From Escherichia phage HZP2, in the sequence record NC_048164.1: 32,448 nt of DNA; one strand, written 5' to 3'. Within the stretch, counting starts at the first letter, position 1. The number at the start of each line of letters is the position of its first letter. This document shows positions 1,596-11,844 of the stretch, in pieces. The notes below the pieces were generated by a model. That model was not told the origin of the DNA. It worked only from the letters and a program-made list of their open reading frames with translations, and did not search any database. A program made the position numbers and the translations under genes.

Positions 1596-3356
1596 GTGTC
1601 TACTCAGTCCAATCGTAATGCGCTCGTTGTGGCGCAACTAAAGGGTGACTTCGTGGCGTTCCTGTTCGTCTTATGGAAGGCGTTAAACCTACCAGTGCCA
1701 ACTAAGTGTCAAATCGACATGGCTAAGGTGCTGGCGAATGGAGACAACAAGAAGTTCATCCTACAGGCTTTCCGTGGTATCGGTAAGTCATTCATCACAT
1801 GTGCGTTCGTTGTGTGGTCCTTATGGAGGGACCCTCAGTTGAAGATACTTATCGTATCAGCTTCTAAAGAACGTGCAGACGCTAACTCCATATTCATCAA
1901 GAACATCATTGACCTGCTGCCGTTTCTCAGTGAGTTGAAGCCGAGACCCGGACAGCGTGACTCTGTGATTAGTTTTGATGTTGGCCCCGCTAGTCCTGAC
2001 CACTCGCCTAGTGTGAAATCAGTAGGTATCACTGGTCAGTTAACAGGTAGTCGTGCTGATATTATCATTGCGGATGACGTTGAGATTCCGTCTAACAGTG
2101 CTACTATGGGTGCCCGTGAGAAGCTATGGACTCTCGTTCAGGAGTTCGCTGCGTTACTTAAACCACTACCTACGTCTCGTGTTATCTACCTTGGTACCCC
2201 TCAGACTGAGATGACTCTCTATAAGGAACTTGAGGATAACCGTGGGTACACAACCATTATCTGGCCTGCTCTGTATCCAAGGACACACGAAGAGAACCTC
2301 TATTACTCACAGCGTCTTGCTCCTATGCTACGTGCTGAGTACGATGAGAACCCTGAGGCACTCGCTGGGACTCCTACAGACCCTGTTCGGTTCGACCGAG
2401 ACGACCTGCGTGAGCGTGAGTTGGAATACGGTAAGGCTGGCTTTACGCTACAGTTCATGCTTAACCCGAACCTGAGTGACGCTGAGAAGTACCCTCTGAG
2501 GCTCCGTGACGCTATCGTAGCGGTCTTAGACTTAGAGAAGGCACCGATGCATTACCAGTGGCTTCCGAACCGTCAGAACATCATTGAGGACCTTCCTAAC
2601 GTGGGCCTTAAGGGTGACGACCTACATACATACCATGAGTGCTCGAATAACTCTGGTCAGTATCAACAGAAGATTCTGGTCATTGACCCAAGTGGTCGTG
2701 GTAAGGACGAAACAGGTTACGCTGTGCTGTACACCCTCAACGGTTACATCTACCTAATGGAAGCTGGTGGTTTCCGTGACGGTTACTCCGATAAGACCCT
2801 TGAGTTGCTCGCTAAGAAAGCCAAGCAATGGGGAGTCCAGACGGTTGTCTACGAGAGTAACTTCGGTGATGGTATGTTTGGTAAGGTATTCAGTCCTATC
2901 CTTCTTAAACACCACAACTGCGCGATGGAGGAGATTCGTGCTCGTGGTATGAAGGAGATTCGTATTTGTGATACCCTTGAGCCAGTCATGCAGACTCACC
3001 GCCTTATCATTCGCGATGAGGTCATTAGGGCCGACTACCAGTCAGCTCGTGACGTAGACGGTAAACATGACGTTAAGTATTCACTATTCTACCAGATGAC
3101 CCGTATCACCCGTGAGAAAGGTGCTCTGGCTCATGATGACCGATTGGATGCCCTTGCGTTAGGCGTTGAGTATCTCCGTGAGTCCATGCAGTTGGATTCC
3201 GTTAAGGTCGAAGGTGAAGTGCTTGCTGACTTCCTTGAGGAACACATGATGCGTCCTACAGTTTCTGCTACCCACATCATTGAGATGTCTGTAGGAGGAG
3301 TTGATGTGTACTCTGAGGACGATGAGGGATACGGTACGTCTTTCATTGAGTGGTGA
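1596..3356 (+). CDS. 19: terminase large subunit / DNA maturase B (T7 gp19 homolog)
   Basis: 586 aa, near-identical to T7 gp19 ([24 protein letters not shown]...TSFIEW). GTG start at 1596 directly after GGAGG; T7 gene 19 also appears to start with GTG. Confidence 0.95.
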
Positions 3357-3888: not shown

Positions 3889-3911
3889 TAATTCGACTCA
3901 CTATAGGGAGA
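3889..3911 (+). promoter_or_regulatory. T7 RNAP promoter (phiOR-like, right-end replication promoter)
   Basis: TAATTCGACTCACTATAGGGAGA, 21/23 match to the T7 class III consensus; positioned upstream of gene 19.5 as phiOR is in T7. Confidence 0.8.
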
Positions 3912-6023: not shown

Positions 6024-6467
6024 ATGTCACAACAAGCTAAAACTTGCATAGCGTGCGGTGAGTTCAAGCCGTTGACGCAATACTACAAGAATGCCTCATC
6101 CCTTGATGGTCACATTGGGACGTGTAAGGCATGTAAGGCCAAACAACAAAGGGAACGAAGGGCACGGAAAAGCAACGCAGAGAGATACAAAAAGGAGGCA
6201 GCACGCCGCCGCGCCAATCATCTGCGAGCAAACTACGGGATAGAAGAGGAAACCTATCGCAAGATGTACGAAGAACAACATGGGGTCTGCGCCATATGCA
6301 AACAACCTGAGAGTATTGAGGGCAGGAGTCTCTGTGTGGACCATTCACATATTACAGGAGAGGTACGTGGGCTTCTATGCTCCAATTGCAACAGAGGGAT
6401 TGGCTTACTCAAGGACTCCCCAGAGTTGGTACGAAACGCTTTTCACTACTTAACCGGTAAACTATAG
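6024..6467 (+). CDS. endonuclease VII-family (HNH-like) nuclease with N-terminal Cys-rich zinc-ribbon-like region; occupies the position of T7 gene 0.5
   Basis: 147 aa; C-terminal YEEQHGVCAICKQPE..LCVDHSHITGEVRGLLCSNCNRGIG matches the T4 endonuclease VII (gp49) N-terminal catalytic motif (C-x2-C ... DH-x-H ... VRGLLC-x2-CN). N-terminus has CIACG...CKACK plus an Arg/Lys-rich linker. Start set at the ATG at 6024 (ORF-track start 5958 is a GTG extension across the RNase III site). Confidence 0.85.
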   Translation: MSQQAKTCIACGEFKPLTQYYKNASSLDGHIGTCKACKAKQQRERRARKSNAERYKKEAARRRANHLRANYGIEEETYRKMYEEQHGVCAICKQPESIEGRSLCVDHSHITGEVRGLLCSNCNRGIGLLKDSPELVRNAFHYLTGKL

Positions 6468-6779: not shown

Positions 6780-9431
6780 ATGAGCACGATTAACATCGCT
6801 AAGAACGATTTCTCTGACATCGAACTAGCCGCTATCCCGTTCAATACTCTGGCTGACCACTACGGTGAGCGTCTAGCTCGCGAGCAGTTGGCCCTTGAGC
6901 ATGAGTCTTACGAAATGGGTGAAGCACGTTTCCGCAAGATGTTTGAGCGTCAACTCAAGGCCGGTGAGGTTGCAGACAACGCTGCCGCTAAGCCTCTTAT
7001 TACTACCCTGCTCCCCAAGATGATTGCACGCATCAACGATTGGTTTGAGGAAGTGAAAGCTAAGCGTGGCAAACGTCCAACCGCTTTCCAGTTCCTGCAG
7101 GGAATCAAGCCGGAATCTGTAGCGTATATCACCATTAAGACTACTCTTGCTTGCCTAACGAGCGTGGACAATACAACCGTTCAGGCTGTAGCAAGCGCCA
7201 TCGGACGGGCTATCGAGGAAGAAGCTCGCTTCGGTAGAATCCGTGACCTAGAAGCTAAGCACTTCAAGAAAAACGTTGAGGAACAACTAAACAAGCGCGT
7301 AGGGCACGTCTATAAGAAGGCATTCATGCAGGTAGTCGAGGCTGATATGCTCTCTAAGGGTCTACTAGGTGGCGAGGCGTGGTCTTCATGGCACAAGGAA
7401 GACTCCATTCACGTAGGTGTGCGCTGCATTGAGATGCTCATTGAGTCCACCGGAATGGTTAGCCTGCACCGCCAAAATGCTGGCGTAGTGGGCCAAGACT
7501 CTGAGACTATCGAGCTGGCACACGAATACGCTGAGGCTATCGCAACCCGCGCTGGGGCACTGGCTGGCATCTCTCCGATGTATCAGCCTTGCATAGTCCC
7601 TCCTAAGCCTTGGACTGGTGTAACTGGTGGTGGCTACTGGGCCAACGGTCGCCGCCCTCTGGTACTGGTACGCACTCACAGCAAGAAGGCACTGATGCGC
7701 TACGAAGATGTTTACATGCCTGAGGTATACAAGGCGATCAACATTGCGCAAAACACCGCATGGAAAATCAACAAGAAAGTCCTAGCAGTCGCCAACGTGA
7801 TAACCAAGTGGAAGCACTGCCCAGTCGAGGACATCCCTTCGATTGAGCGTGAAGAACTCCCGATGAAACCGGAAGACATCGACACGAATCCTGAGGCTCT
7901 CACCGCTTGGAAACGTGCTGCCGCTGCTGTGTACCGTAAAGACAAGGCACGCAAGTCTCGCCGCATCAGCCTTGAGTTCATGCTTGAGCAAGCCAATAAG
8001 TTTGCGAACCGTAAGGCCATCTGGTTCCCTTACAACATGGACTGGCGTGGCCGTGTGTACGCTGTGTCAATGTTTAATCCGCAAGGTAACGACATGACCA
8101 AAGGTCTGCTGACACTGGCTAAAGGTAAACCAATCGGCAAGGAAGGATTTTACTGGCTGAAAATCCACGGGGCCAACTGCGCGGGGGTCGATAAGGTTCC
8201 ATTCCCTGAGCGCATCAAGTTCATTGAGGACAACCACGATAATATCATGGCGTGCGCTAAGTCTCCACTTGAAAACACTTGGTGGGCTGAGCAAGATTCT
8301 CCGTTCTGCTTCCTCGCGTTCTGCTTTGAGTACGCTGGGGTACAGCACCACGGATTGAGCTACAACTGCTCGCTGCCGCTGGCGTTCGATGGGTCTTGCT
8401 CTGGCATCCAGCACTTCTCCGCAATGCTCCGCGACGAGGTAGGTGGTCGTGCTGTTAACCTACTGCCTAGCGAAACCGTTCAGGACATCTACGGGATTGT
8501 TGCCAAGAAAGTCAACGAGATTCTGCAAGAGGATGCAATCAACGGGACCGATAACGAAGTGATTACCGTGACCGATGAGAACACGGGCGAAATCTCTGAG
8601 AAAATCAAGCTGGGTACTAAAGCACTGGCTGGTCAATGGTTGGCCTACGGTGTGACCCGTAGCGTCACTAAACGTTCAGTCATGACGCTGGCCTATGGTT
8701 CCAAAGAGTTCGGCTTCCGTCAGCAAGTTCTGGAGGATACCATACAGCCAGCTATTGATTCAGGCAAAGGTCTGATGTTCACCCAACCCAATCAGGCCGC
8801 TGGGTACATGGCTAAGCTGATTTGGGAATCTGTGAGCGTTACCGTAGTGGCTGCTGTAGAGGCCATGAACTGGCTCAAGTCTGCCGCTAAGTTGTTGGCT
8901 GCTGAGGTCAAAGATAAGAAGACTGGTGAGATTCTTCGCAAGCGTTGCGCGGTGTATTGGGTAACTCCTGATGGCTTCCCTGTGTGGCAGGAATACAAGA
9001 AGCCTATTCAGACTCGCTTGAACCTGATGTTCCTCGGTCAGTTCCGCTTACAGCCAACCATTAACACTAACAAGGATAGTGAGATTGATGCACACAAACA
9101 GGAGTCCGGTATTGCCCCTAACTTTGTACACAGCCAAGACGGTAGCCACCTGCGTAAGACTGTAGTGTGGGCACATGAGAAGTACGGAATCGAATCGTTT
9201 GCATTGATTCACGACTCCTTCGGGACCATTCCGGCTGACGCTGCCAACCTATTCAAGGCTGTTCGTGAGACTATGGTTGACACCTACGAGTCCTGCGATG
9301 TACTTGCAGACTTCTACAACCAGTTCGCTGACCAGTTACATGAGTCTCAACTTGATAAAATGCCAGCACTTCCGGCTAAAGGTAGCTTGAATTTACGAGA
9401 CATCTTAGAGTCAGACTTCGCGTTTGCGTAA
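6780..9431 (+). CDS. 1: single-subunit DNA-directed RNA polymerase (T7 gp1 homolog)
   Basis: 883 aa, near-identical to T7 RNAP over its whole length (MSTINIAKNDFSDIELAAIPFNTLADHYGERLAREQLALEHESYEMGEARF ... HDSFGT ... DFAFA). Confidence 0.98.
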   Translation: MSTINIAKNDFSDIELAAIPFNTLADHYGERLAREQLALEHESYEMGEARFRKMFERQLKAGEVADNAAAKPLITTLLPKMIARINDWFEEVKAKRGKRPTAFQFLQGIKPESVAYITIKTTLACLTSVDNTTVQAVASAIGRAIEEEARFGRIRDLEAKHFKKNVEEQLNKRVGHVYKKAFMQVVEADMLSKGLLGGEAWSSWHKEDSIHVGVRCIEMLIESTGMVSLHRQNAGVVGQDSETIELAHEYAEAIATRAGALAGISPMYQPCIVPPKPWTGVTGGGYWANGRRPLVLVRTHSKKALMRYEDVYMPEVYKAINIAQNTAWKINKKVLAVANVITKWKHCPVEDIPSIEREELPMKPEDIDTNPEALTAWKRAAAAVYRKDKARKSRRISLEFMLEQANKFANRKAIWFPYNMDWRGRVYAVSMFNPQGNDMTKGLLTLAKGKPIGKEGFYWLKIHGANCAGVDKVPFPERIKFIEDNHDNIMACAKSPLENTWWAEQDSPFCFLAFCFEYAGVQHHGLSYNCSLPLAFDGSCSGIQHFSAMLRDEVGGRAVNLLPSETVQDIYGIVAKKVNEILQEDAINGTDNEVITVTDENTGEISEKIKLGTKALAGQWLAYGVTRSVTKRSVMTLAYGSKEFGFRQQVLEDTIQPAIDSGKGLMFTQPNQAAGYMAKLIWESVSVTVVAAVEAMNWLKSAAKLLAAEVKDKKTGEILRKRCAVYWVTPDGFPVWQEYKKPIQTRLNLMFLGQFRLQPTINTNKDSEIDAHKQESGIAPNFVHSQDGSHLRKTVVWAHEKYGIESFALIHDSFGTIPADAANLFKAVRETMVDTYESCDVLADFYNQFADQLHESQLDKMPALPAKGSLNLRDILESDFAFA

Positions 9432-10073: not shown

Positions 10074-11120
10074 ATGATGAACATTAAGACCAACCCGTTT
10101 AAAGCAACGTCTTTCGTAGAGTCTGCCATTAAGAAAGCTCTGGACAACGCTGGGTATCTTATCGCTGACATTAAGTATGATGGTGTACGTGGTAATATCT
10201 GCGTAGACAATACTGCTAACAGTTGCTGGCTCTCTCGTGTATCTAAAACGATTCCGGCACTGGAGCACCTAAACGGATTTGATGCGCGCTGGAAGCGTCT
10301 TCTGAATGATGACCGTTGCTTCTACAAAGATGGCTTTATGCTGGATGGGGAACTAATGGTCAAGGGAGTAGACTTCAACACTGGGTCTGGCCTACTGCGC
10401 ACCAAATGGACCGACACTAAGAACCAAGAGTTCCACGAAGAGTTATTCGTTGAACCAGTCCGTAAGAAAGACAAGGTTCCCTTTAAGCTGCACACTGGGC
10501 ATCTGTGCGTCAAACTGTATGCTATCCTCCCGCTTCACGTTGTAGAGTCTGGAGAAGACTGCGACATCATGACACTTCTTATGCAGGAACACGTTAAGAA
10601 CATGCTGCCTCTGCTACAGGAATACTTCCCTGAAATTGAATGGCAAGCGGCTGAATCTTATGAGGTCTACGATATGGTAGAACTACAGCAACTGTATGAG
10701 AAGAAGCGTGAAGAAGGCCATGAGGGTCTCATTGTGAAAGACCCCATGGGAATCTATAAGCGAGGTAAGAAGTCCGGCTGGTGGAAGATGAAACCTGAGA
10801 ACGAGGCTGACGGCATTATCCAAGGTCTGGTATGGGGTACGGAGGGTCTGGCTAACGAAGGCAAAGTGATCGGCTTTGAGGTGCTTCTTGAGAGTGGTCG
10901 TGTAGTAAACGCCACAAACATCTCTCGCGCCTTAATGGACGAGTTCACTACCAGAGTCAAAGAGCACAAAGCCTCAAGGCAGAACCATGAGTACCTGAAC
11001 CCGTTCCATGGATGGGCCTGCCAGATTAGCTACATGGAGGAAACACCGGATGGCTCTCTGCGCCACCCATCGTTCGTATGTTTCCGTGGCACCGAGGATA
11101 ACCCTCAAGAGAAAATGTAA
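10074..11120 (+). CDS. 1.3: ATP-dependent DNA ligase (T7 gp1.3 homolog)
   Basis: 348 aa; MMNIKTNPFKA...IKYDGVRGN (adenylation motif KxDG) ... near-identical to T7 ligase but ~11 aa shorter. Confidence 0.95.
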   Translation: MMNIKTNPFKATSFVESAIKKALDNAGYLIADIKYDGVRGNICVDNTANSCWLSRVSKTIPALEHLNGFDARWKRLLNDDRCFYKDGFMLDGELMVKGVDFNTGSGLLRTKWTDTKNQEFHEELFVEPVRKKDKVPFKLHTGHLCVKLYAILPLHVVESGEDCDIMTLLMQEHVKNMLPLLQEYFPEIEWQAAESYEVYDMVELQQLYEKKREEGHEGLIVKDPMGIYKRGKKSGWWKMKPENEADGIIQGLVWGTEGLANEGKVIGFEVLLESGRVVNATNISRALMDEFTTRVKEHKASRQNHEYLNPFHGWACQISYMEETPDGSLRHPSFVCFRGTEDNPQEKM

Positions 11121-11127
11121 TCACACT

Positions 11128-11158
11128 GGCTCACCTTCGGGTGGGCCTTTCTGCGTTT
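11128..11158 (+). terminator. early-transcription terminator TE (intrinsic terminator for host RNAP)
   Basis: GGCTCACC-TTCG-GGTGGGCC hairpin followed by TTTCTGCGTTTA; identical in sequence context to T7 TE (CTGGCTCACCTTCGGGTGGGCCTTTCTGCGTTTA). Confidence 0.85.
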
Positions 11159-11180
11159 AATACGACTCACTATAGGAGAT
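11158..11180 (+). promoter_or_regulatory. T7 RNAP promoter (phi1.5-like), directly abutting TE
   Basis: TAATACGACTCACTATAGGAGAT. Confidence 0.85.
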
Positions 11181-11187
11181 ACACATA

Positions 11188-11277
11188 ATGATGTACTTAC
11201 TTCCACTACTAATCATCATCATAGGATGCCTTGCGCTTCACTATAGCGACGACGACATGCCTGATGGTCACGCTTAA
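11188..11277 (+). CDS. 1.5: small hydrophobic protein (T7 gp1.5-like, 29 aa)
   Basis: [29 protein letters not shown], between two T7 promoters as gene 1.5 is in T7; too short for the ORF track. Confidence 0.55.
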
Positions 11278-11297
11278 TACGACTCACTATAGGAGAC
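11275..11297 (+). promoter_or_regulatory. T7 RNAP promoter (phi1.6-like)
   Basis: TAATACGACTCACTATAGGAGAC. Confidence 0.85.
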
Positions 11298-11302
11298 ACT
11301 AT

Positions 11303-11566
11303 ATGTTCAGACTTCATTTCAACAAAAGTCTTAAGAATTTCACTGTTCGCCGTGCTGACCGTTCAATCGTATGTGCGAGCGAACGCCGAGCTAAGTTACC
11401 TCTTATTGGTGACACAGTTCCTTTGGCGCCGAGCGTCCACATCATTATCACTCGTGGTGACTTCGAGAAAGCAATAGACAAGAAACGTCCGGTTCTTAGT
11501 GTGGCAGTGACCCGCTTCCCGTTCATCCGTCTGTTACTCAAACGTATCAAGGAGGTGTTCTTATGA
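11303..11566 (+). CDS. 1.6: gp1.6 homolog
   Basis: 87 aa [87 protein letters not shown], matches T7 gp1.6; the ORF-track start at 11231 is an extension. Confidence 0.88.
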
Positions 11567-11830
11567 GCAAAGACATGGTAAACCAACCTGCCACTAAATC
11601 AATCGAAGGTGTCACTAAGCCTTCCCATTACATGCTGTTTGACGACATTGAGGCTATCGAAGTGATTGCCCGTTCGATGACCTGTGAGCAGTTCAAAGGT
11701 TATTGCTTCGGGAACGTCTTAAAATACAGACTACGTGCTGGTAAGAAGTCCGAACTGGCTTACTTAGAGAAGGACATGGCGAAAGCTGGGTTCTATGGTG
11801 AACTGTACGAGAAACATAAGGATAAGTGCT

Positions 11831-11844
<14 letters not shown>
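11563..11844 (+). CDS. 1.7: gp1.7 homolog, short form (C-terminal domain only; T7 gp1.7 is a nucleoside monophosphate kinase)
   Basis: 93 aa; residues [58 protein letters not shown] match the C-terminal half of T7 gp1.7 (196 aa); the N-terminal ~100 aa of the T7 protein have no counterpart here. Confidence 0.8.

Follow-up and report, generated by a model that had tools for sequence, protein, structure and literature searches.

A common terminator-promoter junction without gene 1.4 at the predicted early/middle gene boundary of the T7-like Escherichia phage HZP2

The DNA considered here is a stretch of 32,448 nucleotides from Escherichia phage HZP2 (NC_048164.1), hereinafter the window, and the locus of interest is the compact tract between the gene for the ATP-dependent DNA ligase and gene 1.6, all elements of which lie on the plus strand. 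The ligase gene, gene 1.3 (10074..11120, 348 aa), is the last of the early (class I) genes; the open reading frame matches the Pfam families DNA_ligase_A_M (8e-36) and DNA_ligase_C (2e-47), and its counterparts in related phages are annotated as ligases. The ligase stop codon ends at 11120 and is followed, from 11128, by the hairpin of the predicted terminator TE (11128..11147), an 8-bp, G+C-rich stem (GGCTCACC and GGTGGGCC) with a TTCG loop, recognised from its fold and its identity to T7, and then by an interrupted T-tract, TTTCTGCGTTT (11148..11158). The final T of this tract, at 11158, doubles as base -17 of phi1.5, a predicted class II phage promoter, TAATACGACTCACTATAGGAGAT, that extends from -17 to +6 (11158..11180) and has its +1 at the G in position 11175. 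Next comes gene 1.5 (11188..11277, 29 aa; phrog_12128, E = 3.6e-20), the product of which combines a hydrophobic N-terminus with an acidic tail and is conserved in the relatives. The packing is tight on both sides of this gene: the GGAGA at +1 to +5 of phi1.5 doubles as its ribosome-binding site, and its TAA stop codon forms the first 3 nt of the next class II promoter, phi1.6 (11275..11297, +1 at 11292), behind which gene 1.6 (11303..11566) encodes an 87-aa protein of the BC10 family (Pfam BC10, 6e-23; phrog_1777, 1e-41). Gene 1.5 is the sole open reading frame between the two promoters, and the list of open reading frames agrees with a preliminary description of the locus in placing one 29-aa frame alone ahead of phi1.6.

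The window belongs to a T7-like phage of the genus Teseptimavirus: its first 25 kb show 94% identity over 91% of the length to phage HZ2R8 and are similarly close to Yersinia phage vB_YenP_WW2, Shigella phage ESh6 and phage CICC 80001. The same genome that carries phi1.5 encodes the cognate single-subunit RNA polymerase (6780..9431, 883 aa; Pfam RNA_pol, 3e-109, and RPOL_N, 1.6e-33), and the 23-bp T7 promoter consensus occurs, with at most 3 mismatches, at 11 sites in the window where 0 are expected by chance; besides phi1.5, 13 more promoter-like sites are found in the window on the same strand. The window is either circularly permuted or crosses a concatemer junction. A 586-aa open reading frame at 1596-3356 is a candidate, by size alone, for the large terminase subunit, two TAATTCGACTCACTATAGGGAGA promoters resembling phiOR and phiOL lie at 3889 and 4748, ahead of the early region, and the first ~595 bases of the window are unmatched in its closest relatives.

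TE can be identified by direct comparison. Positions 11121-11159 of the window and 7555-7593 of T7, a segment that includes the annotated TE (7588), are identical at 39 of 39 positions, and the location directly after the ligase gene 1.3 is that of the annotated TE in T7, 13a, R, T3 and EcoDS1. Folded as RNA, the element reaches -17.6 kcal/mol (z = -3.44), and only one in 200 shuffled sequences folds as well. Among the relatives, the loop differs (TTCG, GAAA, TTAG or TTCT) and the stem is unchanged, a pattern that fits selection acting on the hairpin and not on the loop sequence. TE went unlisted in a generic terminator scan owing to the interruption in its T-tract, which the T7 TE shares, and the call is therefore based on the fold and on the match to the T7 element; an Rfam scan of 10800-11800, with E up to 1, matched no family and thus detected no known structured RNA at the junction. 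We regard TE, then, as a predicted intrinsic terminator for the host RNA polymerase, its activity being suggested by its identity with the T7 terminator. When position 7588 of T7 is transferred to the window by the offset between the two ligase stop codons (11120 and 7554), release of the host enzyme should occur near 11154, 4 bases before phi1.5.

The promoters are equally easy to recognise. A 22-mer, TAATACGACTCACTATAGGAGA, is present in exact form at 11158-11179 and again at 11275-11296, with 0 occurrences expected by chance. Positions 11158-11180 follow the T7 class II consensus from -17 to +2, including the conserved core TAATACGACTCACTATAG, and depart from it at +3 to +6 exactly as T7 phi1.5 and phi1.6 do (GGAGA); the homologous sites are annotated as phi1.5 in T7, 13a and R, and phi1.6 is likewise annotated in all three. 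Accordingly labelled here, phi1.5 is a predicted phage promoter, with its activity presumed from identity with the T7 element. At -2, both phi1.5 and phi1.6 of the window have the consensus T where T7 has A, which suggests that they are, if anything, nearer to consensus strength than the T7 promoters.

Alignment of the window with T7 (NC_001604) reveals a single difference of layout. The two are identical to the end of the ligase gene and across TE; a single 169-nt gap follows, and identity returns at promoter base -17, so the arrangement in T7 is not that of the window: the two share TE (39 nt identical) and, in matching order, homologous copies of phi1.5, gene 1.5, phi1.6 and gene 1.6, whereas between the T-tract and promoter base -17 T7 carries a further 169 bp that encode gp1.4. 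This segment, T7 7592-7760 (its placement has 2 nt of freedom because TA is repeated at both ends), consists of a 16-nt leader, TATAAGGAGACACTTT, and the 51 sense codons of gene 1.4, the TAA stop of which coincides with the first three bases of T7 phi1.5. The preliminary description had placed a small gene, 1.4, between TE and phi1.5 in T7, and the T7 annotation bears this out (TE at 7588, gene 1.4 at 7608..7763, phi1.5 at 7778). It had further proposed that the gene is absent here and that TE directly adjoins phi1.5; the 169-nt gap and the sharing of one T between tract and promoter are in full agreement, and all of its coordinates hold on direct reading of the sequence. No homologue of gp1.4 was detected elsewhere in the 32-kb window, part of a genome ~7 kb longer (best tblastn hit at E = 0.14, noise; no blastn hit). 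In T7, gp1.4 is a hydrophobic protein of 51 aa that falls into phrog_17655, a family without an assigned function; we found no discussion of gene 1.4 in the literature.

What finds no support is the suggestion that the junction records the loss of gene 1.4 or is in any way unusual. A 67-nt query spanning the junction retrieved it in one uninterrupted piece from 39 GenBank phage records, or ~29 distinct isolates after removal of RefSeq duplicates, and T3, EcoDS1 and K11 are without gene 1.4 as well. Among the carriers are phiA1122, YpP-Y, YpP-R, YpsP-G, Yersinia phages R and Y, 13a and C5, and also N30, IME390, CICC 80001, 3A_8767, HZ2R8, ESh6 and WW2. The record of 13a (EU734174) has TE at 6304-6323 and phi1.5 at 6334-6356, with gene 1.5, phi1.6 and gene 1.6 behind them; TE and phi1.5 are annotated in the same way in Yersinia phage R (JX000007), and terminator and promoter features are listed under the same junction match in Yersinia phage Y. 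The abutment of TE and phi1.5 is, therefore, real, ordinary, and already known and annotated in public genomes. The junction CCTTTCTGCGTTTAATACGACTCAC is invariant when the window is aligned with HZ2R8, R and 13a, and the order of ligase gene, TE, phi1.5, gene 1.5, phi1.6 and gene 1.6 in 13a, R, phiA1122 and other Teseptimavirus members is that of the window. Only point differences separate the window from the group of 13a and R, namely a few substitutions in gene 1.5 and, in both phi1.5 and phi1.6, the base at -2, which is T in the window (CACTATAGG) and A in that group (CACTAAAGG).

More distant relatives show variations on the same plan. In T3 (NC_003298, Teetrevirus), with TE at 7646-7667 and phi1.5 at 7683-7705, the promoter lies within 15 nt and gene 1.4 is absent, although, unlike the window, T3 has promoters of T3-type specificity, no phi1.6 before gene 1.6, and a gene 1.5 of 25 aa. 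EcoDS1 (Kayfunavirus) has a promoter 27 nt after TE and no gene 1.4. In K11 (Przondovirus), also without gene 1.4, the promoter begins at the ligase stop codon and is followed by an unannotated open reading frame similar to gene 1.5. Thus, in these three phages, a phage promoter is found 0-27 nt from TE or from the ligase stop. The exact TE hairpin is present in 41 contigs of IMG/VR, mostly from unrelated phages that share a generic hairpin; five of these contigs are T7-like, and four of the five correspond to isolates already in GenBank. One IMG/VR contig (L004) has the same TE hairpin, then 8 nt, a promoter of another specificity, and a 24-aa open reading frame similar to gene 1.5. From the layouts of T3, EcoDS1, K11 and this contig, we conclude that the usual arrangement in the subfamily is a promoter shortly after the early terminator and no gene 1.4.

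By comparison, gene 1.4 is rare. When the T7 stretch running from TE to phi1.5 served as the query in a sensitive DNA search, the gene was detected in only 55 records, of which 41 are T7 and its laboratory derivatives and the remaining 14 represent 12 natural isolates (ESh1, ESh3, Bas103, Bas104, Pila, UFV01, 04922B, EG1, ESh2, 64795_ec1, AV103 and vB_YpYeO9). A tblastn search with gp1.4 yields the same picture with fewer matches; the DNA counts are used here because that search missed carriers such as 04922B and EG1. Neighbour-joining trees of the two flanks, one from the final 340 nt of the ligase gene and one from the initial 135 nt of gene 1.6, both intermix carriers and non-carriers of gene 1.4, and we therefore consider the gene to be a presence/absence accessory cassette, the two alleles of which have evidently been reshuffled among these phages by recombination. 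This recombination makes the history of the particular genome studied here unreadable from the trees or the distribution. The genomes without gene 1.4 all have the same junction and those with it all have the same pair of junctions, which points to one original event. TE is retained in more than 100 T7 records but gene 1.4 in only 41, so many of the sequenced laboratory lines may lack the gene. The one clone that was inspected, T7_110S (MZ375254; locus L049, 940-975), has gene 1.4 deleted, and the deletion also replaces bases -16 and -15 of phi1.5 (CTTTTACGACTCAC). A paper on genome reduction (PMC9825161) mentions neither this clone nor gene 1.4.

In which direction did the change go? The most economical reading, and in our view a quite probable one, is that the tight junction between TE and the promoter came first and that a subset of Teseptimavirus later acquired gene 1.4 by insertion; T7 then represents a minority state that is probably derived. 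The direction of the indel is something that we infer, with the proviso that a deletion between the 2-nt TA repeats would yield an identical junction. This very point underlies the alternative of secondary loss, under which the ancestor possessed gene 1.4, the gene was removed through a deletion from one TA microhomology to the other or else through recombination of phi1.5 with a promoter that formerly preceded gene 1.4, and the deletion allele subsequently spread through recombination. Such a course is compatible with a number of observations: the TA repeats at the ends of the T7 insert would produce exactly the junction of the window; the leader of gene 1.4, AAGGAGACACTWTATG, copies that of phi1.6 and resembles the 3' part of a promoter, so that an ancestor with a promoter before gene 1.4 could have lost the gene by recombination; the junction in ESh1, equivalent to a promoter minus 13 nt, suggests that a promoter did once precede the gene; the deletion is tolerated in one laboratory T7 clone; and the flank trees interleave the two kinds of phages. 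Nevertheless, we consider secondary loss unlikely. The identical junction in all genomes without gene 1.4 speaks for a single event and not for recurrent loss, the gene is found nowhere beyond a subset of Teseptimavirus, and in four outgroup lineages that are without it a promoter lies near TE or the ligase stop, a spacing that a deletion would have to recreate by chance.

One could also ask whether the junction was created during assembly, by the collapse of two 23-bp promoter copies with the gene between them dropped, a concern that the many near-identical promoter copies in the window and the circular permutation of the contig make legitimate. This explanation appears extremely improbable, given that ~29 independently sequenced isolates have the junction, the Sanger-era phiA1122 and 13a among them; moreover, no promoter precedes gene 1.4 in the phages that have it, and hence there is no repeat pair to collapse.

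Taken together with the insertion of gene 1.4 in a minority of phages as the preferred reading, the comparison makes it very plausible that the junction is where the early genes of a Teseptimavirus ordinarily give way to the middle genes, in the form of the common allele without gene 1.4. On the basis of established knowledge of T7 and of homology, the host RNA polymerase would transcribe the early genes through the ligase gene and terminate at TE, with release near 11154, and the phage RNA polymerase (6780..9431), itself a product of the early region, would then start at phi1.5 (the G at 11175) and at phi1.6, leading to the expression of genes 1.5, 1.6 and those downstream. TE is not expected to stop transcripts that the phage enzyme initiates at the upstream promoters (9440, 9516 and 9993). 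In T7, gene 1.4 would be a 169-bp accessory cassette, inserted exactly at the 5' edge of phi1.5 and using the TAA of the promoter as its stop codon, and the alleles with and without it would have been swapped among these phages by recombination. All that the terminator requires (the hairpin plus the initial 7-9 nt of the tract) lies upstream of the indel and all that the promoter requires (-17 to +6) downstream; therefore, gaining or removing gene 1.4 should affect neither TE nor phi1.5.

In itself, this result matters little, other than to correct the habit of taking T7 as the reference state: a junction without gene 1.4 is the norm among the relatives of T7, and gene 1.4, an accessory present in a minority of these phages, can be done without in at least one sequenced T7 clone from the laboratory. 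When the window is annotated, its terminator and promoter can take the labels TE and phi1.5 through direct homology.

The interval between TE and gene 1.6 differs among these phages in its complement of tiny open reading frames. T3 has gene 1.5 only, with one promoter; the window and 13a have gene 1.5 flanked by two promoters; T7 has genes 1.4 and 1.5; EFA-2 and C5 (loci L047 and L037) have gene 1.5 and a 64-aa open reading frame inserted exactly before phi1.6; and Bas103 has gene 1.4, gene 1.5 and a paralogue of gene 1.5 behind a visibly decayed promoter, TTGACGACACCACTAAGGAGATAC. In the last phage (locus L055, 690-840), the paralogue is in tandem with gene 1.5 and encodes 38 aa (MTYLMPLL...DDDDDDTQDDHA), and the promoter copy before it is mutated and apparently dead. 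In every case in the interval, the stop codon of the tiny open reading frame is a TAA at bases -17 to -15 of the next promoter; this applies to gene 1.5 in the window, gene 1.4 in T7, the 64-aa frame of EFA-2 and C5 and the gene 1.5 paralogue of Bas103 (shared TAA at 11275-11277 in the window, 1362-1364 in L001, 767-769 in L047 and 838-840 in L055). The indels in the interval are exact modules, each comprising a leader and sense codons, at the 5' edge of a promoter. Exactly two copies of the 16-mer AAGGAGACACTWTATG are present in 10 of the 12 loci with gene 1.4, at the starts of genes 1.4 and 1.6, and a single one in Bas103, in ESh1 and in phages without gene 1.4 (copies at 1196-1211 and 1494-1509 in L001 and at 412-427 in L051-L054). 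In ESh1, the junction GCGTTTATAGGAGG equals a promoter minus the 13 nt between TA repeats.

Tentatively, and with rather more doubt than conviction, we suggest that the interval from TE to gene 1.6 is a hotspot in which open reading frames for tiny membrane proteins are gained, duplicated and lost as promoter-bounded modules, that the leader of T7 gene 1.4 is what remains, after decay, of the promoter still lying against TE in the window, and that the promoters serve as sites of recombination. As an origin for the T7 junction, a single deletion in an intact promoter works exactly in ESh1 alone; because the other phages need one extra base change, the decayed promoter is put forward here as a hypothesis. 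Exact small-ORF modules whose stop codon is also part of the following promoter could be used to study promoter-guided modular exchange in T7-like phages. Small lesions of phi1.6 are seen in certain relatives: in Serratia phage Pila (locus L052, 675-700), a 12-nt partial duplication of the 5' end of the promoter, CTAATATTCCTAATACGAC, and in ESh2 (locus L045, 800-830), CTAATACGACTAACTAAAGG.

Two further observations concern the genes that follow. In Teseptimavirus, gp1.5 (11188-11277 in the window) displays a lipobox-like motif, (I/V)(I/V)GC, for example I-I-G-C, after the hydrophobic N-terminus; a lipoprotein nature as a property of the whole family was rejected, given that the homologues in T3, K11 and the IMG/VR contig have no cysteine at this place. 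Gene 1.7 of the window (11563-11844) encodes only 93 aa, which match the DUF3310 half, at the C-terminus, of T7 gp1.7, a nucleotide kinase, and cover positions 86-173 of the 175 positions of the phrog_2585 profile; the N-terminal half is missing in the window and likewise in EFA-2, a second difference from T7 in this part of the genome.
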